Of a stretch of 50,115 nt of DNA, positions 8,282 to 43,927 are shown piece by piece. The stretch is taken from the NCBI GenBank assembly GCA_011057845.1, contig DSDB01000614.1, positions 1-50,115 on the forward strand, written 5' to 3'. The notes below the pieces were generated by a model that worked only from the letters and a program-made list of their open reading frames with translations, was not told where the DNA came from and ran no database searches. The stretch is from Phycisphaerales bacterium. GTDB taxonomy: Bacteria; Planctomycetota; Phycisphaerae; Sedimentisphaerales; Anaerobacaceae. The position numbers were made by a program, and so were the translations under genes. Within the stretch, counting starts at the first letter, position 1; each line of letters begins with the position of its first letter.

Positions 8282-9097
8282 TTAGAGCAGATTCAGCGCC
8301 ATCTGCGGCATCGTGTTGGCCTGCGACAACATCGCGATGCCGGCCTGGGCGAGCACCTGGCTCCTCGTGACCTGGGCCATTTCGCTGGCGACGTCCACAT
8401 CCGAGACACGCGACTCGGCGGACATCAGGTTCTCGGCCTGGATGTTGAGAACGTTGATCGTGCCTTCGAGCCGGTTCATCTTGTAGCCGAACTTGGCCCG
8501 TGCCGTGTCCTTGTTGGAGATGGCCGTGTCGAGGTTTGTCAGAGCCACCTTGGCGCTGGCCTCCGTCGAGATCGCCAGACCGGTGATCGCCAGACCTCCC
8601 GAGGCACTGGTCAAATTGCTGCCGGTGATGTCAATCTTGTCCGAGGTCAACTCGCCGAAATGGATGGACCGGGTGGTGCTGTTGTCCAACATGCTGATGC
8701 CGTTGAACTTGGTGGCCGAAGCGATGCGGTCGATCTCCAGCCTCATTTCGTCGAACTCCTGGTGCATGATCCACCGCTGCCCCGAGGAGTACGAACCCGT
8801 CGCGGCCTGTTCGGCCAATGACTGCATACGAATCAGGGCGTCGTCGATGGTCGCCATCGCCCCTTCCATCGTCTGCAACATGCTGATTCCGTCGCGGGCG
8901 TTCCGCGCGCCCTGCTTGATGACGGCAATGTCGGCCCGCATCAACTCGCGAACGGCCAAACCAGCGGCGTCATCGCGGGCACTATTGATGCGGAGGCCCG
9001 AAGACAGCTTCTCAACTGACTTGCTCAATGCCTCGTACGCGTCGCCGACGTGGCGAGCCGCGTTGACCGACATCAAGTTGCTCTTGATTGCTAACAT
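8282..9097 (-). CDS. fliC: Flagellin (short, 271 aa, D0/D1 only)
   Basis: N-terminal KLSSGLRINSARDDAAGLAV and ARNARDGISMLQTMEGA. C-terminal DVASEMAQVTRSQVLAQAGIAMLSQANTMPQMALNLL. AAGGAG RBS 7 nt upstream of the ATG. Confidence 0.95.
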   Translation of the reverse strand: MLAIKSNLMSVNAARHVGDAYEALSKSVEKLSSGLRINSARDDAAGLAVRELMRADIAVIKQGARNARDGISMLQTMEGAMATIDDALIRMQSLAEQAATGSYSSGQRWIMHQEFDEMRLEIDRIASATKFNGISMLDNSTTRSIHFGELTSDKIDITGSNLTSASGGLAITGLAISTEASAKVALTNLDTAISNKDTARAKFGYKMNRLEGTINVLNIQAENLMSAESRVSDVDVASEMAQVTRSQVLAQAGIAMLSQANTMPQMALNLL

Positions 9098-26278: not shown

Positions 26279-28648
26279 TCAGGCCGTCTTGGAGGGGATG
26301 ATGCCCGCCGCGGCCATCTGGTTCTGCAGCATCGCCAACGTCTTCTCCAGCCGGGCGTACTGCAGTATCAGGCGCTGTTCCCGCACTGAGACGCGCCGTT
26401 GCTCTTCCTCAATCTTCTTGTCGAGCAGCTCAATCTGATCCTTGACGTGCCTGCTGTCCACAACGACGCTGCCGACGGTGGGTTTGAGTATCCGGTCAAG
26501 CACGTCCTCAAGTCTGCCCGCAAAACCCTGCCGGATGCGCACGGTGGAGGTGAAGACGCCATCGGTCGATAGGGCAACGCTTAATTGCAGCCCGTTTTCG
26601 GGATACAGGGGATTTCCATTGGAGTCGAACTGCCCGTTGCCTGTGACGATGTTGCTGCTGAATTCGGCGTCGCGCCACGTGGACTCCGACGACAGCTTGA
26701 TACGGGCGCCTGTAATGGCGCCGCCGGCGACGGTCACTTCGACGTCGTATTGACCGGCGGTCGTGTAGGCGCTGCTGGCCCCATAGAAGCGAATGGCGCT
26801 ACTCGTGCTGGTCCCGCTCTTGTCGGCGCCGATCAGATTCAGAACGCCGCGGGAGTCTTTGGCAATGGCCTTGTCGAAGTCGGCGGCGTCCAGACTCAGA
26901 TGCCCGTCCTTATCCAGTCTCAGGCCGATGGCCGCCGGGGCCAGAAAACTGTCGATGTCGGCGATGAACCCGGCGGCCTGCTGAATGAGCGGCAGGCGAA
27001 TCTCATTATGAATGGAGGACACCGTGTAATCGGACATGAGGATACCGGCGGTCTTCGTGGCCTCGTCATAACGTGTGTTCTCCTTGATGAAATCCACGGC
27101 GTAGTTGTACGCCGTCACGAGCCGGTCGAGCCGGTCTTTGACGGACTGGACATCTCGGGTCAGCGTAATATCCTTGCCGGCGGCGTCCGTCGTATCATGC
27201 AGGTGCAGGGTAACACCGGCAATGACGTCATCGACAGTGTTGGTGCTTCGGTTGATGTAACCGTCGGATCCCTTGGCCTGCTCGGCCCAGACATAGTTGG
27301 GCGCCGGCCGGTCCAGATTCGAGGCGTCTATCGCGATCATGTCGACATCGCCCAGTCCCGAAGCAAAGGTGAACGTCAGGGTGCCGTTGGTGGTGCTCAG
27401 GCGGTCGCCGCTGACGGTGATGTCGCCGGCCGAGACATTGTCCAGGGCCTCAAGGGCGGCCTGGATCGAGGCCGCGTCGGCGTCGTAGGCCAGGGCGGCC
27501 GTCGTGCGGCCGTCGTAGGTGAGCGTGAAGGCGCCGCCGTTGGCGCCGCTGGAGAAACCAAGTGTCTGGACCTCGGCCACGGGCGTGATCGCCGGAAAGC
27601 CATCGACCTTAATTCGAGAATCCTGCGCGCTCTGAGTCTCCGTAAAATCGGCGGCCGCAAAACCCGCAAGACTGGCGCCGACGGCGCCGCCTTCGGTATC
27701 GACCGCCATGGCGGGCAGGGTCAGGGTCGCCGCTGACCCGTTGGCGTTGTAGGTCAGGCTGATGGACAGGTCGCTGGCGCCCTGGACGTTGTCGGCCAGT
27801 ATGATCAGGCCGTTTTCAAATCTGGCCTTGGCGATGCCGTCGAATGCACTGTTGATTTCCCCAATCAGGTGCTCGATGCGGGTGTTGTCGGTGATGCCGA
27901 GGTTGATCTGGGCGATCGCCACGCCGTTGCGGTCGGTCCCGGTGATTTCGATCACCTCGCCGCCTTCGAGTGCGCCGCTGAACTGATCGAGGTCAATGAG
28001 CCGGGTGTTCGTGGCCGCGTTGTCTGTGCCGCGGGTCAGCTCCGAGCCGGCCTTCCACGTCTCGGTCGAGCCGGCATTGATACGGATCCTGTAATCGGAG
28101 CCGGCGTCGTTGCCGTTGAGGACCAGATGGTACTTGTTGTTGTAATGCAGCAGGCTGGCTGTGACGCCGGGGTTATCGGCGTCGTTGTTGATCAGACCGA
28201 CGAGGTCCTGGAGGGTCGTGGTGGCCGTGGTGGCGACGGAAGTCTCTTTGTGATTGTAGGAGTAAATAAACGTACCGGCGCCCACGTAGTCCTCGGCATA
28301 CTTGAGCCCCGTGGTGTGGACCATTCTCGCGGACCGCGCCAGGCGGTTGATCACAACATTGTGGCTGCCCTCAAAGGCCTGGTTGCCGGCTTCGGCCGTC
28401 AGTTTGTCCTTGTCGCTGGTCGACACATTAAACGCCCGCAGCGTGTCGGCGCTCGATAGGTTACGGGCGGCGGTGCGGAAATTGCGGAGTTTCGACTCCA
28501 GGTCGCGCAGGGCGGTCTGCCGCTGGGTCCATGTATCGCGGCGGTCCTCGTAGACATTGAGCTGGCGTCGCTCGACCGCCATCAACTGCCTGATGAGCGA
28601 TGCGGTGTCAATACCTGTCTGGAGGCCTGGAAGCGTTATAGTGGCCAT
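26279..28648 (-). CDS. fliD: Filament cap protein FliD (789 aa, enlarged)
   Basis: N-terminal GLQTGIDTASLIRQLMAVERRQL. Central IKVDG...NTVDDVIAGVTLHL. C-terminal coiled coil ...REQRLILQYARLEKTLAMLQNQ. Confidence 0.9.
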   Translation of the reverse strand: MATITLPGLQTGIDTASLIRQLMAVERRQLNVYEDRRDTWTQRQTALRDLESKLRNFRTAARNLSSADTLRAFNVSTSDKDKLTAEAGNQAFEGSHNVVINRLARSARMVHTTGLKYAEDYVGAGTFIYSYNHKETSVATTATTTLQDLVGLINNDADNPGVTASLLHYNNKYHLVLNGNDAGSDYRIRINAGSTETWKAGSELTRGTDNAATNTRLIDLDQFSGALEGGEVIEITGTDRNGVAIAQINLGITDNTRIEHLIGEINSAFDGIAKARFENGLIILADNVQGASDLSISLTYNANGSAATLTLPAMAVDTEGGAVGASLAGFAAADFTETQSAQDSRIKVDGFPAITPVAEVQTLGFSSGANGGAFTLTYDGRTTAALAYDADAASIQAALEALDNVSAGDITVSGDRLSTTNGTLTFTFASGLGDVDMIAIDASNLDRPAPNYVWAEQAKGSDGYINRSTNTVDDVIAGVTLHLHDTTDAAGKDITLTRDVQSVKDRLDRLVTAYNYAVDFIKENTRYDEATKTAGILMSDYTVSSIHNEIRLPLIQQAAGFIADIDSFLAPAAIGLRLDKDGHLSLDAADFDKAIAKDSRGVLNLIGADKSGTSTSSAIRFYGASSAYTTAGQYDVEVTVAGGAITGARIKLSSESTWRDAEFSSNIVTGNGQFDSNGNPLYPENGLQLSVALSTDGVFTSTVRIRQGFAGRLEDVLDRILKPTVGSVVVDSRHVKDQIELLDKKIEEEQRRVSVREQRLILQYARLEKTLAMLQNQMAAAGIIPSKTA

Positions 28649-28779: not shown

Positions 28780-31700
28780 CTATAACAGAGGAACCGAGAC
28801 GGCTGCCAGGCGGGATTCACGGACACAAATACATCTCGCCCGGTACTTGTCGGCCAGTCTCTGGTAGAACTGTGGAAAACGGACCATCGGGCCGCGGGCA
28901 TATCGGCCGAAAACTTCCGCCAGGTACTCATGGAAGCAATGTGCACGGTCGTCGGGATCCTCGATGGCGGCCAGGTGGGGGCAGAGCCTCTCGGCGGGGT
29001 ATCGCTCAACCATGGCGCCCAACGCCTCCGCCATGATCCGGTTTCGCTGCTCGTACCTGTGGCTGTTGCCGCCAGGCAGACGGCGATAGAAGTACCGGCC
29101 TTGAAAATCACAGCGACAAAAACGGATATCCGGCGCATGGCGGCAGAGAAAGACGAAGTCCTCAACGGTATCGACTTCATCATAGAGCCCCGTTCGGTCG
29201 TAGAGGCTGCGGCGTTTGAGACTGCCCGGATTGGGTACGGGCCCGAAGCCGTGTTCAAGCAGAAAGGCCGGCAGGATGCGACTATCCGGAAAGTCCTCAT
29301 ATCGCCACAACTCGCCTGTCGGACAACCGGCCGAGTCAACAAGGGTCAGGGCCGCTGGGTAGACATAGTCGGCCTCCGGGTGCTGTTCAGCGAAGCGCAC
29401 AAGCCCGTCAATGTAGTCGGGAGATATAAAATCGTCGGCGTCCACGTTCAGGATGTACCGGCTGGCGGCCTCGCGGATGGCCCGGTTCAGACCCGATGCG
29501 AAGTTCTTATGCTCTTTGTGGATGCAGCGGATGCGTCGGTCGCCGTAGGCGGTCATGATGTCCGCCGTTCGATCCGTGGAGCCGTCGTTGACTATGAGCA
29601 GCTCGAGTTCCTCGAAGCTCTGCCCCAGGACTGATGCGATCGCCTGCGCTATGTAGGGCTCGGCATTGTAGGCCACCATACACACCGAGACCAAGGGCTC
29701 CCGGCGGCTCGATGCCGCAGACACAGGCGGTGCCGTGATGCTTGGCGACCCGCTCACGTCAGACCGATCCGCCGTCTTGCGGCGGGCCAGAAGCATGTGA
29801 AACGGTACGTCGATGTGGCCGACGATCCAGAGTATCGCCCGGTCATCGGACATCGCATGGACCGCATCGGGAAGATTCTCAATTAGCCCCCGCGCATACA
29901 ACCGGCGAACGAGGGCGAAATACTGCCGAACATCCTCGCGCCGAGCCAGGGCCTCGTTCACGGCGTCGGCGAACAGGGCCTCGGGATCGGCGTCGCTCGA
30001 CCGGGCGCGCGTTTCGGTGCGGCGTTTAAGTGCATTGAGGCGGGCCCTGACACGGGAGAGAATAGCGATATTGACCTTGTCCTTGGAGTGGGCGATGGAG
30101 GTCGGCAACTCGCGGTAGAGGTACAGAGGCTCGTCCACAAAAAACAGGCCGCCAATCTCCTCCATCTTGTAGACGATGTCCACATCCTCGGCGTATACAA
30201 TAGCCTCATCATAGCCGCCGGTTCGATGATAGTACGCGGTCTTGAACGTCTTGAAATGGCTGACGTGGTTTTCGTCGAGAGCCGATGCGCCCGGGCCGAT
30301 GGGTCCGCAGAAGCCCGTCTTGCGAGGCGTCAGATCGGCGCCACAGTAGATGAACTGCGAGTAGATGAGCCCGGCGTCGGGGCGTTCCAGATGGGCCTGG
30401 TGCATCGTCTCGATGGCTCGCGGCGTCAGGGCGTCATCGCTGTCAAGGATACCGAAGACATCGGCCGAGACAGCGGCGATGGCGGTCTTCAGCGCAGCCG
30501 TGTAGCCCTTGTTGACATCGTGATGGAGCACCCGGACGCGGGGATCGGACGCGATGCGGGCGATTTCGGCGAGTGAATCGTCGGTCGAGCCATCGTCGAC
30601 GATGATGAGTTCCCAGTCCGTGAACGTCTGCGACAGCACGGACCTGATCGCCTCGGCGATATAGGGGCCGTTGTTGTAGTTGGCCATGATAACGGAGAAT
30701 CGCGGCTTGGGGCGCGGGCCGCCCGCCGCCTCAACGAGGCGGATTTCCACGGGGTGATGGCACGCCTCGGGCGTGAAGCCTGCGTACCCTCCCACATCGA
30801 TCCGGCGGCCCGCGTCGAATTCGCCAGCCAAGGCCTCGGCGGTATAATCGGGATTGGCTTCACACCGGTTGGGACGCACCGACTGGACCACATTGACGGG
30901 ATTGCAGAATGCCACGGAAGTGGCTGGACACAGCAGCAGCGGCCGAGTCTCGGCAAACAGGCGGGCCTGGGCCGCGAAAGCCTCCTCAAGAGTATTCGGA
31001 TTGGCGAATTCAATGTGTTCCAACACCACCAACAGGTCGGCGGCCCGGTAGAGGGAACTGGACACCTCAAAGGGATAGGCGAAATCGTGCTCGGCCGTTG
31101 TCCAGTTGAACTCCAGTACACCGTCCCGCAGCGGCCGAAACTCCGGCAGCGTCTGTGGCACGCTTCGGGGGTAGCAATACCGCGTGTTACGGCCCAGGCG
31201 AAGCGAGAAACCCAGTGCGGCCGGCTGCGCGGACAGAGCGGCAATACAGCCGCCGGCGGAGAACTCCCGCACGAAGATGTTGTCGTCGACCAGCAATAGG
31301 ACGTGGTCGCAGGACCCCACGAGGCCGAGCAACTGCCCCCGGAAATCGGACTCGGCCAGGAATGCAACGGTCGGGAACTCCTCCGCCAGCTTCTCATATT
31401 GCCGCCGATGCCGTTCGGTGGAGACCTTGTAGAGAATGGTTGGATGGAGGAGATCCGCATCGGTGCAGTGCATCAACAACGATTCCAGCGTCGCCCGTAG
31501 TTGCATCGCGCGGTCCTTGCTGAAGATGATCGTTCGCAAGGGTACACGGCCCGTCCCAAGGATTCTTGACGCTCCCGGCCGGGTGTGTTTCTCCAGGAGA
31601 TGCCGTACCTGCGGGGCGTCGAGACCCTGGTCACGAGCCAGGATAAGCTGTTCGAGGGATGCATCGGTGCGACCGTCCTGGAGAAGGGCTAGGGCCCGCC

Positions 31701-34700
31701 AGTAGGCGCTGGTGGCGTCGCTTATGAATCCGGGACGACGGACGATATCGAACATGGCTGCCATATCCGGCCGCCAGAACAAGCGTCGCGGGTCAGGCAG
31801 GTCCGCCGAGACTTTGTGGCGCCATCGCGCCAGGAGCCGCCTGATGTCGTCGTCCGCCTGAGCCAGATTGGACTGCTTCTGAGCATCGAGGATGTTATGG
31901 TGGGTCACCAGGCCGCAGGGCAGTGGAATCAGGTGCAGACCGGCGTCGTACAGCCGGTAGCAGAAGTCCGTGTCGGCACAATAGAAGCGGTAGGACTCGT
32001 CCAGCCCGCCGATGTGGCGGAAGGCGTCCAGGCGGAATAGGCCGTAGTTCATAAGCAGGCGGGCGCCGTAAGTGAAGTCGATCCCAAACTCGGCCCAGAA
32101 GGGCTGCGCAGGATGAACATTGCGGTAAAAGAACATGCCACCGGCCACGCCGTCACTATGTGTGTCGAGGAGATGGACGGCTTCGGCCAGGGCCCCGGTG
32201 TTGAATGACATGTCATCACTGGCGTACATGGCGTATCGCCCCGTGGCCTTGCTGAAACCGAAGTTATACAGCGCCGGCCACGAATGATGCCCCTGACCCA
32301 GGTGTTCGGACTCGCGATAGACGCGGTTGATGCCGTGTCTACCGAGCACCTCGCGCGTGCCGTCGGTTGAATCCCCATCGATGATGATGAATTCGTACTT
32401 GAGACCATCCGCAGCCGCCTTGATGCTTCCTAGTGCGGCGTCGAGCAATCCGGCCCGGTTCTTCGTGGACAAGACGACACTGAGGTCCGGCCGGTCACCG
32501 GTGCTTGGCGTCGCCTCAACCGGTACGACGGCGTCCGATTCCAAGGAACGAACTGTGGTGACACCCAGGGGCCGGCGGCTGTGGTAGGCTACGCGGACCG
32601 ACTCGGACGCCAGGAACTCGAGTATGCACGGGACGATGGTCCACAGTGAGAGTTGACTACTGTCGTGCAGGTCGTTTTCCTTGAGGTAGCGACGGTGGTG
32701 TTCGGCGAATCGTCGGCCCAGGCGGGTCCAGGGGTTCGTCTTCTCATCACCATTGAAATGGAGGTCGATGCCGCCGCGCAACGACTGGAAGAACTCGCTC
32801 GCAAGGCGGCCCCAGTGGTCGCCCGACCACTCAAACGTGTGGCGAATGTGACGGGCGACAGGCGTGGTAAGGCGGCGGAGTTCCGCCCCGTTGAGCAAGG
32901 CCGCCACCGGCAGGTGGTAGTCCCACCAAGGCATGCCCAGGCAGAGGTTCGACGCCGGGATTCGCGCGATGAGCGATTTGTCAAAAAAGAAAAAGTCAAA
33001 GCCGCAGTTGTAAATGGTTCCATCTTCATCGCCGAGCGCATCGACATCGAGACGCGAACCGTAAAACAGCGATTGTGAGGCTTGGTGTTCAATGAAATCC
33101 AAAAGACCCCGGTCACCGGACAGGTGAATGTCGGCATTGACGATGCCGCAGAGGTCCCCGGCATTCACGGCCAGGACGCCGAGTACGTCGTCTAAGTAGA
33201 CAAGCGGTTTGCCGTAGAGATCGCGCGCGTCGCGCGGCGCCGCCATGAACTCCACTCGCGGGAATGCCGGCGCCAGGCGGTCCACTTCCTCCCGACAATT
33301 GACACTGATGACGCGAAACCCCAGGTCGAGCCAGCTTCGGACGGCGTTTTCCTGGGCGCCGATCCGTGACGGGGCAATGCTGGTCACAATGGTGACGGCC
33401 GGCCGGGCCGCAACTGAAACCGGCCGCGTCTCGGTCGCCCTCACAACGCCTGTCCGAGATCTGGGCGCCGCGGCACAAGCCGAATTCCTGAAACCGTCTA
33501 GTCGCATGGAATCGAGATGCAGCGGTTGCGGCGCCGCCAATTCCCGAGGGCAGTCATTGTGGTCGATCTCGTCCTGCAGGACCCGGCGAGCCTCCTCGGT
33601 GTAGTCCTGCCAGGCGCATTTGGTCTTCTGGCCCGGGTGATGGCGGAATCCGGCCAGCCAGGCGTCAAGAGTGTGAAGACGGGTATGTTTGAAGAAGCGC
33701 AGCCAGAGTTCGCAATCGCCAGCGAATCGCAGGTCCGTTCGGATGCGCCCGCCGGCCCGCTGCCATAGAGTACGAGTCCAGAAGGTGCTCTCTTGCTGGA
33801 TAAAGAACCGGGGACTGGTCTGTAGGTAGTCGACACGCGACCATAACGGGACCCAGCCGACGTTGATGAGCCGCCCGGCAGCATCCCACGCGGTGGGTCG
33901 GCCGGTAAGCCACTGGATGTCGGGATAGCGACTGAATACGTAAGCCACCTTCCAGAAGGCGTCGCGGTGGTACTTATCGTCGGAGTTCAACCAGGCCATG
34001 ATCGAGCCGGTGCTCTTGTCGAACCCCGCTTGGATGGCGGCGTATTGGCCGCCGTCCGGGGTGCTCTGCCAATAAGAAAGGTGCTTCTCGTATTTCCGGA
34101 TGATATCGACCGAACCATCCGTGCTGCCGCCGTCCATGATGATGTATTCGAGATTGGGATAGCCCTGGCTCAGTACCGAATCGATGCACTCTTCGAGAAA
34201 CGCCCCCTGGTTGAAGGACGGTGTTACGATGGATATCTTCGGCAGGCCCGCTGCGACGGGAGGGTGGGCGGTTCCCACCGGGACGGCACGGCGCCCCATG
34301 GCCCCCGCCTCGCGTTTCGTCGACAGAGCCAGCAGACGCGGCTTGGCCTTCTCGGCCTGGCGAAAGACATCGTTGTCCACGACCCGTGGAACAGCCCCGG
34401 GCACGAATAGCATCGGGCTGCCGGCTCGGCGGCGGCACTCGGCGATACAGCGGTGATACAGGTCCAGGTACTGGCCCGCGATGCGTTTGTGGTCGAATGT
34501 CGTTACCGCTCGGCGGCGGGCGGCGGCGGCGAGGCGTCCGCGAAGCCCGGCATCGCGCACCAAATCGATCAGAGACCGCGTGATGGCGGGAATATCGCCG
34601 GCGGGGGTGATGAGGCCCTCTTGTCCATCGCGAACCAGTTCGGGGACCCCACCCGTATCAAAAGCGGCAATCGGCAGACCGCAGGCCAGGGCCTCCAGAA

Positions 34701-35658
34701 CAACCAGCGGGCAGTTGTCGGCGTTCGGCGTATACAAGAAGATGTCGATAGCCGAGTAGGCAAAGGCCAGTGCGGTTTCGTCGGCGATGTGTGGGATATT
34801 GATGATACGAGGGTCTTGCGACGGTCTGTTGTCGCCGATATTGACAAAGACAAACTGACCGGCACCATTGAGCGCATTGAGAACCGCCTGGGTGTGGCGG
34901 CCGCCCTTCCACGGATTGGCCAGCGTGCCGCCGTGCGCGATGGCGCCCACGGCCAGATGATCCGGCGGAATACCGAAGCGATGGCGTGCCTCCTGCTTGT
35001 CGTGCGGACGGAAGACGTCCGTGTCCACGCCGTTGTAGATCAGATCCATGGGGTGGTCTCTGAGGACGGACTGCGCCACCTTATCATGGAGCCATCGCGA
35101 CGGCACGACGATGTGCAGAAAGCTGTGGTCATAGATGCGTTTCTTATCGGCTAGCAAATTGGATGCGTTGTCGACGAACAGAGCCGGGTCAACAGACAGA
35201 TTGGGGCAATCCCGGCAGTCCCGCCGCCAGCGATCGCAATCAAAGGCGTGCGCGCAGTGGCCGGTCAGCGCCTGCATGTCGTGCAGGGTCCAGACGACGG
35301 GCCGCCCATGCGACAACGGCGAGAGGCTGAAAGGATTGAAGTAACCTCCGTGAAGGTTGTGCAAGTGCAGGATGTCCGCAGCTCGGACGTGGGGGTTGAA
35401 GACCAGACGGTGGCTGCCCTGGAACTCGTAGTAGAGCTGCCCGGATTGCAGGCACACGGGGTGAAGGTGTCGGTTCTTCTCGATGGGAAAACTGAATGCA
35501 TTGGGATCGTTCGACAGTTTCTCCCCCACCAACATCGCGGCACGGCAGCCCACGGCACGCTGGGCGCAGGCTAGCCGTGAAGCCACCTTAGCGGCGCCAC
35601 CAGCCACGTCGTGCGTGTTGATATGCAGAATGGACAGGGCTGTGTCAGGCCGGTTCAT
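28780..35658 (-). CDS. Multi-module glycosyltransferase megaprotein (2,292 aa from ATG 35658): GT4-like + GT2 + unassigned + GT2 + unassigned GT-A-like + GT2 + GT2
   Basis: Track ORF 28780..35790. The first 44 codons are Arg/Pro-rich and overlap the upstream gene. ATG 35658 forms an ATGA overlap with the upstream stop. Module motifs (track aa numbering): 52-455 GT-B (PLVVLEALACGLPIAAFDTGGVPELV); 517-740 GT2 (ISIVTPSFNQ..YIIMDGGSTDGS..NSDD); 797-1000 (VTIVTSIAPSRIGAQENAVRSW..IVNADIHL); 1100-1300 GT2 (LSVVLSTKNR..FIIIDGDSTDGT..ASDD); 1417-1640 (TIIFSKDRAMQL..LLLVDDNIF); 1696-1900 GT2 (FSVIMANYNN..LIIVDDGSTDDS..LDSDD); 2031-2250 GT2 (VSVCMVAYNA..LLIVNDGSTDRT..VDADD). Confidence 0.85.
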   Translation of the reverse strand: MNRPDTALSILHINTHDVAGGAAKVASRLACAQRAVGCRAAMLVGEKLSNDPNAFSFPIEKNRHLHPVCLQSGQLYYEFQGSHRLVFNPHVRAADILHLHNLHGGYFNPFSLSPLSHGRPVVWTLHDMQALTGHCAHAFDCDRWRRDCRDCPNLSVDPALFVDNASNLLADKKRIYDHSFLHIVVPSRWLHDKVAQSVLRDHPMDLIYNGVDTDVFRPHDKQEARHRFGIPPDHLAVGAIAHGGTLANPWKGGRHTQAVLNALNGAGQFVFVNIGDNRPSQDPRIINIPHIADETALAFAYSAIDIFLYTPNADNCPLVVLEALACGLPIAAFDTGGVPELVRDGQEGLITPAGDIPAITRSLIDLVRDAGLRGRLAAAARRRAVTTFDHKRIAGQYLDLYHRCIAECRRRAGSPMLFVPGAVPRVVDNDVFRQAEKAKPRLLALSTKREAGAMGRRAVPVGTAHPPVAAGLPKISIVTPSFNQGAFLEECIDSVLSQGYPNLEYIIMDGGSTDGSVDIIRKYEKHLSYWQSTPDGGQYAAIQAGFDKSTGSIMAWLNSDDKYHRDAFWKVAYVFSRYPDIQWLTGRPTAWDAAGRLINVGWVPLWSRVDYLQTSPRFFIQQESTFWTRTLWQRAGGRIRTDLRFAGDCELWLRFFKHTRLHTLDAWLAGFRHHPGQKTKCAWQDYTEEARRVLQDEIDHNDCPRELAAPQPLHLDSMRLDGFRNSACAAAPRSRTGVVRATETRPVSVAARPAVTIVTSIAPSRIGAQENAVRSWLDLGFRVISVNCREEVDRLAPAFPRVEFMAAPRDARDLYGKPLVYLDDVLGVLAVNAGDLCGIVNADIHLSGDRGLLDFIEHQASQSLFYGSRLDVDALGDEDGTIYNCGFDFFFFDKSLIARIPASNLCLGMPWWDYHLPVAALLNGAELRRLTTPVARHIRHTFEWSGDHWGRLASEFFQSLRGGIDLHFNGDEKTNPWTRLGRRFAEHHRRYLKENDLHDSSQLSLWTIVPCILEFLASESVRVAYHSRRPLGVTTVRSLESDAVVPVEATPSTGDRPDLSVVLSTKNRAGLLDAALGSIKAAADGLKYEFIIIDGDSTDGTREVLGRHGINRVYRESEHLGQGHHSWPALYNFGFSKATGRYAMYASDDMSFNTGALAEAVHLLDTHSDGVAGGMFFYRNVHPAQPFWAEFGIDFTYGARLLMNYGLFRLDAFRHIGGLDESYRFYCADTDFCYRLYDAGLHLIPLPCGLVTHHNILDAQKQSNLAQADDDIRRLLARWRHKVSADLPDPRRLFWRPDMAAMFDIVRRPGFISDATSAYWRALALLQDGRTDASLEQLILARDQGLDAPQVRHLLEKHTRPGASRILGTGRVPLRTIIFSKDRAMQLRATLESLLMHCTDADLLHPTILYKVSTERHRRQYEKLAEEFPTVAFLAESDFRGQLLGLVGSCDHVLLLVDDNIFVREFSAGGCIAALSAQPAALGFSLRLGRNTRYCYPRSVPQTLPEFRPLRDGVLEFNWTTAEHDFAYPFEVSSSLYRAADLLVVLEHIEFANPNTLEEAFAAQARLFAETRPLLLCPATSVAFCNPVNVVQSVRPNRCEANPDYTAEALAGEFDAGRRIDVGGYAGFTPEACHHPVEIRLVEAAGGPRPKPRFSVIMANYNNGPYIAEAIRSVLSQTFTDWELIIVDDGSTDDSLAEIARIASDPRVRVLHHDVNKGYTAALKTAIAAVSADVFGILDSDDALTPRAIETMHQAHLERPDAGLIYSQFIYCGADLTPRKTGFCGPIGPGASALDENHVSHFKTFKTAYYHRTGGYDEAIVYAEDVDIVYKMEEIGGLFFVDEPLYLYRELPTSIAHSKDKVNIAILSRVRARLNALKRRTETRARSSDADPEALFADAVNEALARREDVRQYFALVRRLYARGLIENLPDAVHAMSDDRAILWIVGHIDVPFHMLLARRKTADRSDVSGSPSITAPPVSAASSRREPLVSVCMVAYNAEPYIAQAIASVLGQSFEELELLIVNDGSTDRTADIMTAYGDRRIRCIHKEHKNFASGLNRAIREAASRYILNVDADDFISPDYIDGLVRFAEQHPEADYVYPAALTLVDSAGCPTGELWRYEDFPDSRILPAFLLEHGFGPVPNPGSLKRRSLYDRTGLYDEVDTVEDFVFLCRHAPDIRFCRCDFQGRYFYRRLPGGNSHRYEQRNRIMAEALGAMVERYPAERLCPHLAAIEDPDDRAHCFHEYLAEVFGRYARGPMVRFPQFYQRLADKYRARCICVRESRLAAVSVPLL

Positions 35659-38600
35659 GTAAGACTCTCGACGACGTCCTCCAGTACGTTTTCGGCAGGT
35701 CTCTGGCAGGTCATTGCGGCGATGATGCGCCGGGGCCGCTGGGCAAGTGTGCGGCCTTCCAATTGTGACTTGTCGGGGTCGCGTAACCACCGGGCGAAGA
35801 CATCGCCCGTCCAGTTGCGGACGAGAAGACGGGAAACGGCATACAGGTCCACCGGAGGGCTGACATGGCCCTGCGTGTTGGCTAATGCGGCGGTGAAGCC
35901 TTCCGATGCGACCAGTTGGCGGGTCTCGTCGGTAAAGTCGCCGGCCGAACCGAAGGGATAGGACAGCAGGTTCACCGGTTGTCCAGTGAGGGCCTCCAAC
36001 TGCCTCTTGCAGCCGACTACCTCCGCGAACTGATCGCGGACCGACAGGATCCGCAGCCTTGTGTGTGTTTGAGTATGGGCGCCGATCTCAATCAGCGGCG
36101 AGTCGGCCAGGCAACGCAGTTGCGAAAGTGTCAGCGGCCGCTTCGACATCCGTCCGATCAACGGCACGGCGGCCCAGGCAAGGATCATATCAACGACCGG
36201 GTCGATCTGATCGGCGGGCCTGTCGCGCAGAATCGAGCAGATATCGTCATAACACTTCAGACGCTGTGCCGGATCGGCCAAGGACCAGAAAAGCCTCTGG
36301 GAGCCACAAGTCAGAGCCAACGACGGCGGCAGCACGGAGTTCACAAGCAGGGCCTGTTCGAGGGCGTCCCACCAGAATTCGCGGTCGCTGCCAACCATCC
36401 GTGAGGTCACAAAAACGGTGGCCGGGATATTGTGCGCCTTGAGAATCGGCAAGGCCTTCGTGAGGTTGTCGGCATAGCCATCGTCAAACGTGACGGCTAC
36501 GGTGTCCGGCATATACTGGCCGTGGCGGATCTCCTCTACAAGGGTCGGCAGCGGCACGACACGCAAATACGCCGCCAGTTCTGCCATGTGAGCATCGAAA
36601 TTCTCCGGGCTGACCGCCAGGAGCTGGGCGTCAACGGGGTCATCGGCGACGCGGTGGTACAGAAGGATCAGTGGGTGCTCGATGACAACCCTCGGACGCC
36701 CGCCCCCCGAACTCGGCGCAGGCGTGGCCGCCACGGAGTCCCTCGGCTCCCCAGACACCACAGCGGGTTTTGCGGCATGATTCCCGACAGGCACGGCGGC
36801 CTTGCTGGCTCGGGCGGCCAGCAGAACCTGATAGTCCGGATCATTGTGGGCAAGAACCTCGTTGGACAACTGTTCGGCAGGCACGCCATCAAGAAAGGCC
36901 TTGGCCGCCGCCACGTTGCCGTACGCCTGAACACTCACACTGCCTTCAGGAAAGACCTCCTCCACGAGCATGCGCAGGCTCTTGTCCGTGAAGCGCCAGT
37001 ATTCGCCCCAGCGGTCCATATCATAGCGTGATATCTGGCTGATGCCGGAGGCCGTCAGCAGCAATGTCCCGCCGGGTTTGAGGGCCTCGGCGGCGGTCCG
37101 CAGGGCCGCCTTGACATCGTAGATCATCTGAAGGGTCTGCGTCAGGACGATGCAGTCGTAGGCATCCCGCGGGATGTTCCGTCCGGTCGCCAGGTCGCCC
37201 ACGAGCGTGGCCGTCTCCGAAGCCGCAGCACTCAGGACGTCCACACGAGTGGTCCGGGAGCCGTACTTGCGACTGTATTGGTCGTCGCCGACTTCCAGTA
37301 CAACGCCTCGGATGGCGGAGGCATTCTCCGCAAGAAACCGTTCGATGTAGACGCGGTCGATGGGCGTTCCGCGGTCGTAGCCGAATGTCCGGCTGACGGG
37401 CTCGCATCCGGCGTTGTACGTGGCCTCCACGCACCGGGTCGAAGGCCGACCATCCTCCATGGTCCCAGGTTCGTCCCCGGCCCGCTCCGGCGAGAGAATC
37501 CTCTTGGCGTAGATCAGCAGAAAGAAACGCGTCTGAGCGGTCATCTTGAACGGTGGCTTGGTGGCGGGGTTGGTCAGACTGTCAAAGTCATGGATCATGT
37601 AGCGAAACCCCGCGGCCGCCAAGACCGCCAGTATCCTGTGAAGGCTCTGACCCGTTTCGGGAAAGCCGTGATACTCGATGACCAGCTCTTTCACCAGGTG
37701 CAACCGGTCGGCGATCTCCGTGATGACCTCGCTCTCGGCCCCTTCGATGTTGAGTTTCAGAAAGTTGATTTCGCCCTCGATATACCGGCTCAGCGGGACG
37801 ACCCGCACCTTCGTATCGCCGGCCCCGCCGTAGAGGCTACCGCCGTCCGAGTGGTCGGCCGTAAAATCGAGCGTCGCGTCGGATTTGTGCAGACCCGCAT
37901 CCACCACGGTGGCCATGATATTGTTGGCTCGGAGGTTCTTGTGCAGTAACTCGAGCGACTTGCCGTCCGGCTCGAAGATGGTGATTCGGGCGTCGGGGTA
38001 TCGCTGCGCGACGTACAGGCTGAACAGGCCGATGTGTCCGCCCCCATCGATAATGACCGGTCGCGGATTGTCCGTCTCGAAGTCATAGATGCGCTGCAGG
38101 AAGATGTCCTTGGCCGCCATGTAGAACGACAGCAGGTCGTAGCAGTAGATCGTCAGGCCATTGAACTTGACGCAGTAGTCGCCGAACCGCTCCCGCCCCG
38201 CGAGGTTCCGTAATCGCTCGAAGTCCTGCCGTGTGCTCTCCGCGCGAATCTCGATCACGTGATGCGGCGCGACCGATTCCCGCAACGGCGGCGAGGCCGC
38301 CTTGTCGGCGGTTGCGGTGTATTCCTGAACCATCTGCGCCAATTCGGCCATCCGGTGTCGGTAGGTATGCTCTCGCAGTGTCCGCTCCTGGCCGGCGGCG
38401 GCGATATGGGCCCGTTCGGATTCGCTATCCAGGAAGTGCCGCAGCAACTCAGCGCAATGTTCCGCGGATTCGTAGGCCACAACCTCCCGGCCGGGGGCAA
38501 ACAGTTCATGGAGATTGTCCTTGCGGTCGGTCAGCAACAAGGCCCCCATGCCCGTGGCCTCGTAGAGCCGCATGTTGTTGGCGTGCGAACCGGCAATGTC

Positions 38601-39413
38601 AATGTGGCGGTTCAGGACGACTCGGGCACGGCTGTAGAGTCTGTACATCTCCAGCCCGAAGAGCGGACCCTTGAAAAACTCGCGGGCCCGATCCGAAAGA
38701 CCATCGTATCCGAAGCCATGCAGATTCATGGCAAAGCCGCGGTCGGCGAGGGCGTTGAATAGCTCGGTTCCGCCCTTGTGGCCGCCCGTGAACTGGCCTA
38801 CGAAGGCAACGTCAACCGGCCGGTCCGATGGGATGTCCACGCGGTCCAGGAGGGTCGACTCGAAGCCCAGACGAAAGTACTCGGCGGGCTTGCCCAGACG
38901 GCGGAAACCGTCAACATAACCCGGTATGGAGGACAACAGTAGATCATAGGCCGACAGGTCCCGCATGGCCATCGTCAAGGGCGCGGCATGTTGGCCCACC
39001 ATCAGACGGACAAAGGGTTTGACGGGATTCAGGACGTCGCTGGTGACTTGCTCCATCGCCAGGTTGATGATGATATCCGGCTTGAACAGGCGGACTCTGG
39101 CTTGAAGTATGGCGGCCAGATGCTCCGCCGTCATGGTGGCGATCTGCCGCGGGTCGGCTTGCGTCCGGGCGATCAGGCCGTTCTCGCGGGCCCAGGCGTA
39201 TTGCATGAATGGGGCGTTGTAGATGATGTCGGCGGCTTCGTGGCCTAGGGCCCTCAGGTTCCTCGAGTAGAAGTCCGCCACGCCGAAACAGGTGGCCATA
39301 CGGGCCTCATACTGCTGCTCGAAGGGCCGCATCTCGAGACCGGGGTTTTCGGCGTACAGGCGGGCGAGAAACGGCTCATAATCCGTGTTGACAATCAAGA
39401 ATCGCAGCGACAT
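35655..39413 (-). CDS. Four-domain fusion enzyme (1,252 aa from ATG ~39413): CgeB-like glycosyltransferase + FkbM-family methyltransferase + class I SAM methyltransferase + CE4 polysaccharide deacetylase
   Basis: Track ORF 35655..39716. The first 101 codons are Arg/Pro-rich and non-coding-looking. The Met at codon 102 has GGAG 8 nt upstream. Motifs: VAFVGQFTGGH...RLYEATGMGALLLTD (Glyco_trans_1_2/CgeB type); VIIDGGGHIGLFSLY..FEPDG..NFLKLNIEGAE (FkbM); VVLEVGDD...YDCIVLTQTLQMIYD...LKPGGTLLLT (class I MTase); AVTFDDGYADN...IGAHTQTHTRL...LSYPFGS (NodB/CE4). Confidence 0.85.
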   Translation of the reverse strand: MSLRFLIVNTDYEPFLARLYAENPGLEMRPFEQQYEARMATCFGVADFYSRNLRALGHEAADIIYNAPFMQYAWARENGLIARTQADPRQIATMTAEHLAAILQARVRLFKPDIIINLAMEQVTSDVLNPVKPFVRLMVGQHAAPLTMAMRDLSAYDLLLSSIPGYVDGFRRLGKPAEYFRLGFESTLLDRVDIPSDRPVDVAFVGQFTGGHKGGTELFNALADRGFAMNLHGFGYDGLSDRAREFFKGPLFGLEMYRLYSRARVVLNRHIDIAGSHANNMRLYEATGMGALLLTDRKDNLHELFAPGREVVAYESAEHCAELLRHFLDSESERAHIAAAGQERTLREHTYRHRMAELAQMVQEYTATADKAASPPLRESVAPHHVIEIRAESTRQDFERLRNLAGRERFGDYCVKFNGLTIYCYDLLSFYMAAKDIFLQRIYDFETDNPRPVIIDGGGHIGLFSLYVAQRYPDARITIFEPDGKSLELLHKNLRANNIMATVVDAGLHKSDATLDFTADHSDGGSLYGGAGDTKVRVVPLSRYIEGEINFLKLNIEGAESEVITEIADRLHLVKELVIEYHGFPETGQSLHRILAVLAAAGFRYMIHDFDSLTNPATKPPFKMTAQTRFFLLIYAKRILSPERAGDEPGTMEDGRPSTRCVEATYNAGCEPVSRTFGYDRGTPIDRVYIERFLAENASAIRGVVLEVGDDQYSRKYGSRTTRVDVLSAAASETATLVGDLATGRNIPRDAYDCIVLTQTLQMIYDVKAALRTAAEALKPGGTLLLTASGISQISRYDMDRWGEYWRFTDKSLRMLVEEVFPEGSVSVQAYGNVAAAKAFLDGVPAEQLSNEVLAHNDPDYQVLLAARASKAAVPVGNHAAKPAVVSGEPRDSVAATPAPSSGGGRPRVVIEHPLILLYHRVADDPVDAQLLAVSPENFDAHMAELAAYLRVVPLPTLVEEIRHGQYMPDTVAVTFDDGYADNLTKALPILKAHNIPATVFVTSRMVGSDREFWWDALEQALLVNSVLPPSLALTCGSQRLFWSLADPAQRLKCYDDICSILRDRPADQIDPVVDMILAWAAVPLIGRMSKRPLTLSQLRCLADSPLIEIGAHTQTHTRLRILSVRDQFAEVVGCKRQLEALTGQPVNLLSYPFGSAGDFTDETRQLVASEGFTAALANTQGHVSPPVDLYAVSRLLVRNWTGDVFARWLRDPDKSQLEGRTLAQRPRRIIAAMTCQRPAENVLEDVVESLT

Positions 39414-39759: not shown

Positions 39760-40083
39760 TCATGCGCGGCTCTTGTAAGCCCGCAGCGTCTTTCTGACTA
39801 TTCGTGCTTCTTCCAGCCTGCCGGCCGCCTGCGAAAGCTCGCAATGCACCGCCAGCGTCAATTCACCGTACAACCGCCCCAGCCGCTCGCCTCGTCGCCG
39901 GAACAACTCGCCGTCCGTAACCCCCCATTGAACGAACCGCCGGATGATCTCGCCGCTGTCCCGACACAGGGCCTCCAGTCGGGCCGTCTCGCCCCCTCGG
40001 GCCAGACGTATCTGCTCGCCCAGACAGGCCTCCAACCGATCCAGGTCCTGCTCGATCCGATTGTCGTCAAGGTACGAGTCCAT
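39760..40083 (-). CDS. Small all-helical hypothetical protein (107 aa), possible chaperone/adaptor
   Basis: The ATG abuts the stop of the upstream TPR gene (40084/40083). Heptad-like Leu/Arg/Glu-rich sequence with no enzymatic motif. Confidence 0.5.
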   Translation of the reverse strand: MDSYLDDNRIEQDLDRLEACLGEQIRLARGGETARLEALCRDSGEIIRRFVQWGVTDGELFRRRGERLGRLYGELTLAVHCELSQAAGRLEEARIVRKTLRAYKSRA

Positions 40084-40710
40084 CTATGTCGTCGCCGCCC
40101 GACCGTTTAAACTGCGCTCCACCTCCTCCAACAGGTTCGCCGCATCCTGGTTCTCAGGGTCTACGGCGGCAATATCACCCAACATCTTCCTGGCCTCGCT
40201 CAACCGCGAGTCCCTGGCGTACAACGTCGCCAGACAGAACATCACGGACGTGTCGCCCGGGTGCATCCCAAGGTAGGATTCCAGGTGCCGGATTACCTCG
40301 GCGAACGACCCCATCATGCACGAAACCTGGAACAGCCCCAGCAGCGCCGTCAGATTGTCCGCGTCCCGCTCCAGGGACTTCAGATAGAGATCGAACGCCC
40401 GCGGCCCATCGTTGCGTTGCTGAGCGATCATGGCAAGCCCCGCGTAGGCCTTCGCACAGCCGCCGTCCAGACGGCAGGCGACACGGAAGGACAACTCCGC
40501 ATTCTCCAAGTCGTTCTCCTGCAGCGCCACGACTCCCAGCCCTACATAGGGTCCGGGCTCATCCGGCCCGACCGTCGCGGCCTGCTCATAACACCTCTTC
40601 GCATCCGGGTATCGTCCGACCGTCGCATAGCAGTCGCCAAGTTCACACAGCAGCTCGCATCGCTGGGTCGTATTCTCGAATTCCGCCGTGTTGTTCGTCG
40701 TCACATCCAT
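40084..40710 (-). CDS. TPR-only protein (208 aa from ATG 40710)
   Basis: Track ORF 40084..40830. ATG 40710 overlaps the upstream gene's end by 10 nt (TCTCTATGGATGTGA). About five TPR units (YPDAKRCYEQAATVGPDEPGPYVGLG..., AKAYAGLAMIAQQRNDGPRAFDLYLKSLERDADN...). Confidence 0.75.
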   Translation of the reverse strand: MDVTTNNTAEFENTTQRCELLCELGDCYATVGRYPDAKRCYEQAATVGPDEPGPYVGLGVVALQENDLENAELSFRVACRLDGGCAKAYAGLAMIAQQRNDGPRAFDLYLKSLERDADNLTALLGLFQVSCMMGSFAEVIRHLESYLGMHPGDTSVMFCLATLYARDSRLSEARKMLGDIAAVDPENQDAANLLEEVERSLNGRAATT

Positions 40711-42299
40711 AGAGACTCTCTTCCATTGACCAGGTCCACGGCCCTTTCGAGCAGTGCGATTGCTGATGCGGGGTCCTTGGCGCGTCTGCGCAGTCGTCCT
40801 TCGAGAAGCAGTGTCTCGACCGTTGGACACGGGTCATTGACCTGCCGGCACAGCTCCCCAGCCCGTTGATAGTTGCCGCTGCGATAGTGAGCATCCGCCG
40901 CCAGTGACCGGACATACCATTCGTTGCCGTACCGCTCGGCAAGGTACTCGAACAGGCCGGCCGCCCGGGCCCACTGGCCCGCCGCGGCGTGTGCCCTGGC
41001 CTGTTCGAGCAACTGGTCGTACTGAAAAGGTATCTCGTCCGGCTCCACGCGACGGACCACCACACCGACACCCGGCAGGGCCTGCCGTAGCGGCGTATCG
41101 GGATGGTGTCGCCGGGCCTGCGCAATGGCTTCTCTCGTCCCGACCACCGCCCATTGCGCCGCATTGGAATCCTCCAGCTCGAACGCTGTGTCGGGATGGG
41201 CCAATAAGGGGGAGATCGAGTCCTCGACCCAGAAGTTGCGAATGGGAAACCCCTGCGGCACTACCGCCACAAGGTCTCCGTCGCAAGCCTCCAACGCGGC
41301 ATCGATCCTCCGGCAGGCCGCTGTCTGGGGGTCCACCGCAACCGGCACAACATTGGGTATCGTACGACCGCCGATAGCAACCGTACCGCAGCCATGATCA
41401 GCCCCGAGCGCCTCCACATCCTGCGCCGGCAGCGGCAGATAAACACAATAAGGGTAGAACGTGTGGCGACGGACTGCTTCAAGCATCCTTGCGAGACTGT
41501 CGTTAAGCCGCTCCGCCACGATGATGATCGACAGGTCCTTGACGGCGCTCCAAGGCTTGGCCGGCCGCGTCGTGCGAACTGTCAGAAAGGTCTCGACAAA
41601 CGCCTCCCGGTCCTGTCGGCCCTGATGTGATAGTCGCTCCGAGCCCCCGACCGGGCTGTAGAATTCCCCTGTAATCCTCCGGATATGGTAGAAATCCGTG
41701 AAGAAGACGGCCTTGCGCGTAAGGTCCCAGTCGATCAGGAGCTTCAGCTCCTCATTGAAAGGCCCCGTCTGATCCAACAGCTCCCTGTCGTGCATCAGGC
41801 TGACGTGTAACGTGTGATTGAAGCACAGCATCAGAAAACGATCGAAGTCCCGGCTGATCTCAAGGACCTTGCTCAAGACCGTTCTCATCCCATCGGGCTC
41901 AACCCGGCAGTACACCCGATACAGGTCCGTATAGGCCAGCCGGCAATCCGTCCGGCTCTCAAGTGCATCGACCAGGGTCTCGACGTGGTACGGATACAGC
42001 AGGTCATCGTCGTCAAGATAGGCAATGTACTTGCCCTCGGCATGCGCCAGCGCCTCATTGAGCGACGCCGCCTTGCCCAGATTCTCATCCCGGTTGATGA
42101 ACAAAACCCGCTGGTCCCGTAGACGCTCCACAATGTCGTCCACACGCTCGCCTCCGTCGCGGACCAGGATGATCTGTACGTTCCGATAGCTCTGCCGCAA
42201 CGCGCTCGACAGCGCCACCGGTAGAGACCCCCTGCGATTGTGCGTTGGAATCACAATCGTAACCTGTGGACCACGTTTTTCGGCGCCGTTGCAGACCAT
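40701..42299 (-). CDS. GT2 glycosyltransferase with C-terminal TPR region
   Basis: 532 aa. VTIVIPTHNRRGSLPVALSSALRQSYRNVQIILVRDGG...YLDDDD (GT-A/GT2). C-terminal TPR-like helices (ARAAGLFEYLAERYGNEWYVRSLAADAHYRSGNYQRA). Confidence 0.8.
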   Translation of the reverse strand: MVCNGAEKRGPQVTIVIPTHNRRGSLPVALSSALRQSYRNVQIILVRDGGERVDDIVERLRDQRVLFINRDENLGKAASLNEALAHAEGKYIAYLDDDDLLYPYHVETLVDALESRTDCRLAYTDLYRVYCRVEPDGMRTVLSKVLEISRDFDRFLMLCFNHTLHVSLMHDRELLDQTGPFNEELKLLIDWDLTRKAVFFTDFYHIRRITGEFYSPVGGSERLSHQGRQDREAFVETFLTVRTTRPAKPWSAVKDLSIIIVAERLNDSLARMLEAVRRHTFYPYCVYLPLPAQDVEALGADHGCGTVAIGGRTIPNVVPVAVDPQTAACRRIDAALEACDGDLVAVVPQGFPIRNFWVEDSISPLLAHPDTAFELEDSNAAQWAVVGTREAIAQARRHHPDTPLRQALPGVGVVVRRVEPDEIPFQYDQLLEQARAHAAAGQWARAAGLFEYLAERYGNEWYVRSLAADAHYRSGNYQRAGELCRQVNDPCPTVETLLLEGRLRRRAKDPASAIALLERAVDLVNGRESLWM

Positions 42300-43815: not shown

Positions 43816-43911
43816 GTGTACCTCTTCGAGTATTGTGGTTTTTAGCGTCTTGGCCCCGCCAGGCAGGGCAAGGCTGCGAAGCGACCGCAGAGGACCGCCC
43901 TGCGAACAACG

Positions 43912-43927
43912 TGCAAAACCCATGCCG
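43912..43927 (-). promoter_or_regulatory. sigma54-type promoter candidate for the glycosylation operon
   Basis: Minus strand reads CGGCATGGGTTTTGCA. GG and GC sit at exact -24/-12 spacing, with 2 mismatches to TGGCACG-N4-TTGCA. About 95 nt upstream of ATG 43815. Confidence 0.55.

Follow-up and report, generated by a model that had tools for sequence, protein, structure and literature searches.

We analyzed a 50,115-nucleotide (nt) stretch of a Phycisphaerales genome (contig DSDB01000614.1, assembly GCA_011057845.1; hereafter the window), which carries on its minus strand a gene for a giant protein of 2,292 amino acids (aa) predicted to contain seven glycosyltransferase (GT) modules. The best explanation for our findings is that this gene belongs to a flagellar glycosylation island of a Phycisphaerales-type planctomycete. 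We consider it probable, at roughly 0.6, that its product is a cytoplasmic elongation enzyme for a flagellin O-glycan. The whole window is a flagellar cluster, with flgH/I/N/K/L, fliD, flhB, fliR/P/O, motA/B, fliI/H/G/F, fliK, a flagellin gene, a gene for a sigma-54 activator, and a fliJ-like gene. This context gives the most likely function of the giant protein and was absent from the preliminary description of the sequence. The minus-strand order is flgH, flgI, flgN, flgK, a flgL-like gene, three genes for proteins with tetratricopeptide repeats (TPR+GT-B, GT2+TPR, and TPR only), a 107-aa open reading frame (ORF), a multi-enzyme gene, the seven-module gene, and fliD. GT genes are thus embedded among flagellar structural genes, and their position is conserved across species, as is characteristic of flagellin glycosylation islands.

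Seven Glycosyltransferase Modules in One Polypeptide

The longest version of the reading frame spans 28780..35790 on the minus strand, begins with GTG, and would encode 2,336 aa. The ATG at 35658, which overlaps the stop codon of the upstream gene as ATGA at 35655-35658, gives the 2,292 aa quoted in the preliminary description, whose claim of one uninterrupted frame was borne out. An ortholog (P0002; 88% identical, 2,292 aa, 100% coverage) starts at the equivalent of this ATG. The calculated mass of the protein is 256 kDa. No hydrophobic or membrane-association segment was found in 19-residue Kyte-Doolittle windows; the top mean, 1.71, falls on a buried core helix of the GT4 module. The protein is plausibly soluble, as had been stated before. 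A candidate TPR domain within it was rejected, the match being insignificant (E 4.9). A promoter and terminator scan around the gene gave sites no more numerous than in shuffled sequence.

The earlier count of seven GT-type modules was confirmed by profile searches and structure prediction, according to which the protein consists of one GT-B and six GT-A modules (Table I). Module 1 (matched at aa 20-400) scored against PF13439, PF00534, and PF13692 with 31.0, 59.5, and 61.5 bits, where the Pfam cut-offs are 28.5, 26.4, and 27 bits. PF00535 (cut-off 23.3 bits) scored 342.6 bits on the whole protein in four stretches, starting near aa 475, 1059, 1655, and 1990, and modules 2, 4, 6, and 7 submitted as separate pieces reached 84, 57, 110, and 107 bits. 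Pfam thus recognizes five modules, one GT-B/GT4 and four GT2, which are those called in this way before. The two modules that had been left unassigned are both GT-A folds by AlphaFold and Foldseek and carry conserved DXD-type motifs. DXD-type acidic motifs and other key residues are kept in at least 95% of the copies of every module (14-106 orthologous copies per module); in the GT2 modules these include the pairs D560-D561, D1148-D1149, D1741-D1742, and D2075-D2076. Taken singly, the modules show a resemblance to exopolysaccharide and colanic-acid GT2/GT4 enzymes that stays below the NCBIfam family cut-offs throughout. Module 1 in addition contains a cluster of His and Cys residues (H134, C135, C141, C148, and C151; GHCAHAFDCDRWRRDCRDC, window 35206-35259, aa 134-151), which is at least 95% conserved in 106 orthologous modules and has the appearance of a structural zinc site.

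Modules 6 and 7 are the closest paralogs of each other. The preliminary description had noted that they are half identical over their first 50 residues, which is correct (25/50), and had suggested an internal duplication. Such a duplication is supported, and as judged from the sequences it is old rather than recent. The 50% identity at the N termini falls on the generally conserved N-terminal GT2 motif, identity drops to 27% over 311 aa (E 6e-23), and each of the two is conserved as its own orthologous module across Planctomycetota. A recent internal duplication was rejected on account of this low overall identity and separate conservation.

The Fusion Is Real

We compared the gene with that of the 88% identical ortholog, which is present in two independent assemblies, GCA_002347125.1 (Phycisphaerales bacterium UBA2266) and ENA ERZ27315059 (a 200-kb contig). 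The two genes align without gaps or frameshift (6,879 nt versus 6,879 nt). The ratio of nonsynonymous to synonymous substitution rates (dN/dS) is 0.12-0.31 across all modules and 0.20 overall; all seven modules are under purifying selection. A 49% identical homolog of 2,629 aa from a JGI metagenome (P0003) and a further one (P0004) have the same order from module 1 to module 7, and no internal DNA repeat of more than 30 nt that could cause mis-assembly occurs within the giant gene. The fusion is thus real, and we reject an assembly or sequencing artefact that joined ordinary single-domain genes, a vanishingly improbable explanation in view of the ortholog in two assemblies, the ungapped alignment, the selection along the whole length, and the lack of repeats.

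Module 7 is the most diverged module in comparison with the 88% identical ortholog (76% aa identity). Nucleotide identity between window 28780-35658 and the ortholog locus (L001:10001-16879) is mosaic, ranging from 75% to 97% per 300 nt, and modules 3-5 have a synonymous divergence of 0.13-0.16, compared with 0.43 for modules 1-2 and 0.81 for module 7. The neighboring fliD and flhB genes are uniformly 88-89% identical between the two loci. Mosaic identity within the gene next to uniform neighbors suggests recombination within the giant gene between lineages. Recent horizontal transfer was rejected, as GC content is flat at 0.58-0.63 across the window.

Modules 3 and 5 Represent Two GT-A Families without Profile Models

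Modules 3 and 5 (aa about 745-1030 and about 1365-1625 when delimited slightly more narrowly than in Table I) have no Pfam match at E<=10 and no NCBIfam match at E<=1, and profile searches against the PDB gave no significant sequence match. They recur as sharply bounded domains in many giant homologs, occasionally as tandem pairs. Alignments for structure prediction were built from these copies (A1 with 18 sequences, A2 with 16). The AlphaFold2 models have a mean predicted local distance difference test score (pLDDT) of 91.1 and a predicted TM-score (pTM) of 0.89 for module 3, and of 89.2 and 0.89 for module 5. Foldseek against the PDB returned, at probability 1.0, the chondroitin synthase CHSY3, the fucosyltransferase WrtF, SpsA, and K4CP for module 3, and GnT-I, SpsA, CgT, and TarP for module 5. 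The top matches of both are GT-A enzymes only, with TM-scores of about 0.45-0.57 at approximately 12% sequence identity. In these models, both modules are clear GT-A folds, an assignment to which the sequence searches had not led.

Both families are large. Among 1.84 billion cluster representatives, module 3 has 2,173 relatives at E<=1e-3 and 793 at E<=1e-30, some of them stand-alone proteins and others embedded in giant ones. Module 5 has at least 1,368 homologous proteins, with 412 loci among GTDB species representatives; many are stand-alone proteins of about 280-330 aa without a Pfam domain, including some from cultured Firmicutes. Stand-alone homologs of this kind (282-289 aa, no Pfam domain) in Desulforamulus reducens MI-1 (L084) and Collibacillus ludicampi (L085) adjoin genes for GDP-mannose and GDP-6-deoxyhexose synthesis, and the one in D. 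reducens also lies beside three GTs with weak TPR matches. These Firmicutes neighbors are a weak hint that the donor of module 5 may be a GDP-sugar, and that it may work in a protein-directed system.

Only some of the modules might be catalytic, with the others being inactivated scaffolds or carbohydrate-binding units and the product far shorter than seven added sugars. The N-x-D motif that module 3 has in place of the canonical DXD, and the modest TM-scores and sequence identities of modules 3 and 5, would fit such a protein. We regard this as very unlikely, since the acidic motif residues are conserved in every module, dN/dS is low for all of them, and modules 3 and 5 form large families whose stand-alone members of 250-350 aa argue for an activity of their own.

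A Conserved Position beside fliD

GTDB species representatives were scanned with the module 5 alignment. This confirmed 412 loci, of which the best 80 were kept; the closest locus among these, from Phycisphaerales UBA2266, is 91% identical, which puts the window within or close to this lineage. We fetched 83 related loci and searched them with the window's own flagellar proteins. Flagellar genes lie within 10 kb in 53 of the 83, which is a lower bound because planctomycete queries miss distant flagellar genes of other phyla. In 46 loci, fliD is found within about 250 nt of the module 5-bearing gene and on the same strand, and it is downstream of that gene in every locus for which the gene order was listed. 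Outside the window, at least 44 loci, mostly from Planctomycetota, have a relative of the giant gene immediately upstream of fliD. Module 5 is the constant core of the fliD-adjacent gene.

A search with the whole protein yielded over 100 proteins that combine several GT modules within 1,260-3,940 aa, so that the exceptional status implied by the preliminary description was not borne out. They come from Planctomycetota, Geotalea/Geomonas, Ignavibacteria, cyanobacteria, and Methanosarcina, and often add TPR, FkbM or class-I methyltransferase, radical SAM, or deacetylase domains. Their names, where given, are generic ("glycosyltransferase", "FkbM family methyltransferase", "hypothetical protein"), and none of those returned has been characterized. 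Three homologs (P0003, P0005, and P0008) are extended at the N terminus by about 310 aa, a stretch that matches GT2 only below the threshold (E 0.0012) and might be an eighth module. Stop-free frames of 5,568 aa (L061), 3,495 aa (L017), and 3,529 aa (L066) with six to nine module matches occur among the fetched loci; the window protein is thus not the largest of its class.

We assigned each region of the homologs to the best-scoring module of the window protein (m1 to m7). Module order is conserved and module content is variable. Few proteins, the window protein among them, have the full colinear set m1-m2-m3-m4-m5-m6-m7; other arrangements are m1-m3-m4-m5-m6-m7, m1-m4-m5-m6-m7, m1-m3-m4-m5-m6, m1-m2-m4-m5-m7, and m1-m4-m5-m7. 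In many Planctomycetota, two neighboring genes upstream of fliD share the series between them, as [m1..m4] + [m5-m6-m7] (L012), [m3-m4] + [m5-m6-m7] (L015, L025, L053), [m1-m4] + [m5-m7] (L011), or [m4] + [m5-m7] (L020), and the m4|m5 junction is a recurrent point of fusion or fission. The smallest islands (L009, L018) read flgK-flgL-TPR/GT-B-GT2/TPR-[m5-m6-m7]-fliD. Modules 5 and 7, and usually 4, form the core in nearly all relatives, module 1 is common and missing from the smallest islands, and modules 2, 3, and 6 are optional, being found in some lineages only.

These arrangements bear on the fixed-order, template-like assembly that the preliminary description had read from the fusion, which is an interpretation rather than a finding. 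Split genes and the loss of internal modules speak against a strict line. In relatives, the same modules are spread over two neighboring genes, and hence neither a single chain nor its fusion is essential. Modules 2, 3, and 6 are lost from the interior while downstream modules are kept, which is hard to reconcile with a strictly linear order of one module and one step, because an internal loss would deprive the next module of its acceptor. No carrier domain for tethering, as in polyketide synthases (PKS) and nonribosomal peptide synthetases (NRPS), was found. The conserved colinearity is compatible with an ordered pathway. It is doubtful, though conceivable, that the series is a modular colinear glycan assembly line, in which the order m1-m7 would mirror the sugar order or topology of the flagellar O-glycan, and gain, loss, fission, and recombination of modules would diversify the surface chemistry of a flagellin with D0 and D1 domains only. 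If true, PKS/NRPS module evolution would thereby have a counterpart among carbohydrates, which would include two previously unnamed GT-A families.

Proposed Function and Possible Acceptors

In the mechanism that we favor, a TPR-bearing GT would bind unfolded flagellin in the cytoplasm and add the first sugar to Ser or Thr residues of its short central region. The best candidate for this priming step is the TPR+GT-B protein encoded beside flgL, whose layout is that of FlmG (see below). The modules of the giant enzyme would then add sugars singly from nucleotide sugars, and the translationally coupled upstream multi-enzyme may methylate and de-N-acetylate the chain before the flagellar type III system exports the completed glycoprotein. 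Fusion probably keeps the amounts of the modules equal and the modules close together, and the optional modules 2, 3, and 6 probably add side branches or extra residues. The only exposed stretch of the flagellin is a short Ser/Thr-rich segment (aa about 138-190), and we speculate that a bulky glycan might stand in for the missing outer domains.

Several points weigh against this assignment. Flagellin is proposed as the acceptor from gene position only, and the giant gene adjoins fliD and hook-associated genes, not flagellin; the flagellin gene is about 20 kb away and has two neighboring GT genes of its own (TPR+GT41 and GT-B). The TPR+GT-B protein is likened to FlmG by layout alone, and the activity of each module is deduced from its conserved residues. 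About a third of the module 5 loci have no detected flagellar neighbor, and the two Firmicutes loci with stand-alone module 5 proteins show no flagellar genes within 10 kb; the module 5 family is thus not restricted to flagella.

The acceptor could be one or more other flagellar proteins, such as FliD or FlgK/FlgL, or a broader range of proteins that the three TPR-bearing GTs recruit; the flanking GT41 and GT-B genes would then serve flagellin itself. The tight linkage to fliD in 46 loci and the distance to a flagellin gene with its own GTs would fit this possibility, as would the unusual length of FliD (789 aa) and its Ser/Thr content (17%). Gene order alone cannot distinguish acceptors, however, and characterized flagellar glycosylation islands mainly target flagellin, including the Pseudomonas island, which also starts right after flgL (PMC3958885). 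We hold a different acceptor to be a serious alternative, though an unlikely one, and flagellin remains our preferred candidate. A weak Cerato-platanin-like match is found in the central insert of FliD.

We also considered that the giant enzyme works like WbdA and WbbB and makes a polysaccharide that is lipid-linked or secreted (O-antigen, capsule, or exopolysaccharide), its flagellar position then reflecting co-regulation or chance. Characterized multi-GT fusions such as WbdA, WbbB, and WsaE do act on lipid-linked glycans, the modules have the above-mentioned resemblance, below the cut-offs, to exopolysaccharide and colanic-acid GT2/GT4 enzymes, and the deacetylase domain of the neighboring multi-enzyme resembles PgaB/IcaB. 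However, the ORFs scanned against Pfam across the 50 kb include no phosphoglycosyltransferase, flippase, polymerase, or ABC transporter, and no Wzx/Wzy, Wzm/Wzt, export, chain-length, or chain-terminator gene. The position next to fliD is conserved across many species, the partner enzymes bear TPR protein-binding domains, and the giant protein is without a membrane-association segment. Taken together, we find a polysaccharide product quite unlikely, and return to a flagellar O-glycan as the expected product.

Organization of the Island and the Surrounding Cluster

The features of the window are listed in Table I. The TPR+GT-B gene directly follows flgL also in three related loci (L009, L018, L059). 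NCBIfam models do not reach their curated cut-offs on any of the neighboring GTs, this protein included, and no nonulosonic-acid genes were seen in the window. A frameshift between the GT2-TPR gene (40701-42299) and the overlapping TPR ORF (40084-40830) was considered and rejected: the TPR gene starts independently, from an ATG at about 40710, and a related locus (L003) holds a separate 208-aa TPR gene at the same place. The multi-enzyme gene is coupled to the giant gene through the ATGA overlap. The version of the multi-enzyme in L001 has 1,612 aa and one more GT2 module. Directly upstream of the 88% identical ortholog, L001:1-5169 contains a sugar-nucleotide cassette (a B12/radical-SAM enzyme, a DegT aminotransferase, a dTDP-sugar isomerase, a GHMP kinase, and a nucleotidyltransferase), the place of which is taken in the window by the fliT-like, TPR, and GT2-TPR genes. 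The island is a mosaic even between close relatives.

The flagellin gene is flanked by genes for a TPR+GT41 (OGT/HMW1C-like) protein and a small GT-B protein, and the cluster may thus hold a second, flagellin-adjacent glycosylation system. About 12 GT-fold domains are encoded in the whole flagellar cluster. At its edge lies an 840-aa ORF made up almost entirely of TPR repeats; a 755-aa ORF that overlaps it on the opposite strand has no family match and is probably spurious. Two consecutive MotB-plug genes (225 and 247 aa) follow motA, with an OmpA-like domain in the second only.

Table I. Coordinates and properties of the seven-module gene, its modules, and other genes in the window
Feature	Position in window	Strand	Size or extent	Remarks
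Seven-module ORF	28780..35658	(-)	2,292 aa	ATG at 35658, stop at 28780-28782
Module 1	34339..35658	(-)	aa 1-440	Predicted GT-B fold, GT4/WcaC-like; NCBIfam WcaC at aa 120-343; conserved E322, E340, His/Cys cluster H134 C135 C141 C148 C151 (106 orthologous modules)
Module 2	33469..34338	(-)	aa 441-730	Predicted GT2 (GT-A), PF00535; conserved D509, D560, D561
Module 3	32569..33468	(-)	aa about 731-1030	GT-A fold by predicted structure; conserved D823, N841-x-D843, D888, W911-W912-D913, H937, H940
Module 4	31609..32568	(-)	aa 1031-1350	Predicted GT2 (GT-A), PF00535; conserved D1099, D1148, D1149, D1229, D1231
Module 5	30784..31608	(-)	aa about 1351-1625	GT-A fold by predicted structure; motifs FSKDR, VDDN (1457-1460), SLRLG, E1531-x-SSS, FCxPxNxVQ; conserved acidic motif D1458-D1459-N1460
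Module 6	29779..30783	(-)	aa 1626-1960	Predicted GT2 (GT-A), PF00535; conserved D1689, D1741, D1742, E1824-D1825-x-D1827
Module 7	28780..29778	(-)	aa 1961-2292 + stop codon	Predicted GT2 (GT-A), PF00535; conserved D2025, D2075, D2076, D2167
flgK	45270-47240	(-)		Upstream edge of island
flgL-like	44061-45245	(-)		Upstream edge of island
TPR+GT-B protein	42328..43923	(-)	531 aa	N-terminal TPR, C-terminal GT-B; FlmG layout; candidate priming enzyme
GT2+TPR protein	40701..42299	(-)	532 aa	C-terminal TPR repeats; beside flgL in relatives too
TPR-only protein	40084..40710	(-)	about 208 aa	
107-aa ORF	39760..40083	(-)	107 aa	Position held by fliT in related locus L003; no NCBIfam match
Multi-enzyme	35655..39413	(-)	1,252 aa	From ATG at 39413; GT-like PF13524, FkbM methyltransferase, class-I methyltransferase, polysaccharide deacetylase
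fliD (filament cap)	26279..28648	(-)	789 aa	131 nt downstream of giant gene, same strand
MotB-plug genes	20820-22237	(+)	225, 247 aa	
Small GT-B protein	9490-10506	(+)		Flanks flagellin gene
Flagellin	8282..9097	(-)	271 aa	D0/D1 only; Ser/Thr-rich center, aa about 138-190
TPR+GT41 protein	5841-7664	(-)		Flanks flagellin gene
TPR-repeat ORF	11-2533	(+)	840 aa	

Comparison with Known Systems

We compared the island to characterized flagellar glycosylation systems. Pseudomonas aeruginosa PAK has a 14-gene island for a flagellin glycan of up to 11 sugars, and the polar flagellin of Aeromonas hydrophila AH-3 carries a partly methylated heptasaccharide (PMC3958885). As in these islands, GT and sugar-modifying genes are inserted among late flagellar genes right after flgL, lipid-carrier machinery is absent (here from the ORFs scanned against Pfam), and a long, partly methylated flagellin O-glycan would be the expected product. 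In PAK and AH-3, however, a separate small protein serves each step, whereas here seven are fused and four activities reside in a neighboring chain; our island ends at fliD rather than fliC, belongs to a planctomycete, and is known from its genes.

FlmG of Caulobacter crescentus combines TPR and GT-B domains, binds flagellin via the TPR domain, glycosylates it in the cytoplasm, and is sufficient for the modification (PMC7591256). The 531-aa neighbor shares this layout of an N-terminal TPR and a C-terminal GT-B domain, and TPR repeats form part of several giant homologs. The 2,292-aa protein itself differs in having no significant TPR, and FlmG attaches one pseudaminic acid residue only.

A soluble or peripheral chain with several independent GT catalytic modules is also known from WbdA (two or three GT4 modules), WbbB (three GT modules), WsaE (two rhamnosyltransferase modules and a methyltransferase), and K4CP or heparosan synthase (two GT-A modules). 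The structural searches with modules 3 and 5 returned K4CP and heparosan synthase 2, among others. Such systems, like the window, combine GTs with methyltransferase activities at one locus. These systems have two or three modules, undecaprenyl-linked acceptors, and ABC transporters, in contrast to seven modules in a flagellar context here, and the linked Wzm/Wzt, initiating phosphoglycosyltransferase, and chain terminator of the WbdA/WbbB type are not among the scanned window ORFs. To our knowledge, characterized enzymes have at most three GT modules. The literature searched contained no description of a single chain with four or more GT domains, and thus no counter-example to the earlier statement that characterized fusions carry two or three. 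Uncharacterized giant relatives include the 3,835-aa protein of Geotalea sp. SG265 and the 2,113-aa protein of the Phycisphaerales metagenome-assembled genome CP070678; the homologous modules of such proteins are 40-60% identical and arranged in varying orders.

Flagellar glycosylation islands and multi-domain GTs are already known, and the protein itself is in public databases under a generic name. What is new is the degree of fusion, with seven modules as compared with two or three in characterized enzymes, the whole class of giant GT proteins linked to fliD in Planctomycetota, the fused, split, and shortened series at one genomic position, and two large GT-A families that lack any Pfam or NCBIfam profile model. 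In the literature searched, we found nothing on planctomycete flagellin glycosylation or on this class of giant GT proteins. Once the module 3 and 5 families are described, thousands of "hypothetical" proteins would be better annotated. Glyco-engineering would gain a useful tool in a soluble enzyme that, as one polypeptide, assembles a defined oligosaccharide on a protein within the cytoplasm. The natural fused, split, and shortened series beside fliD is a ready-made deletion series for assigning modules to sugars. If its function is confirmed, the giant protein would represent the largest single-chain set of GT modules tied to a defined biological target and would open up flagellar glycosylation in Planctomycetota.

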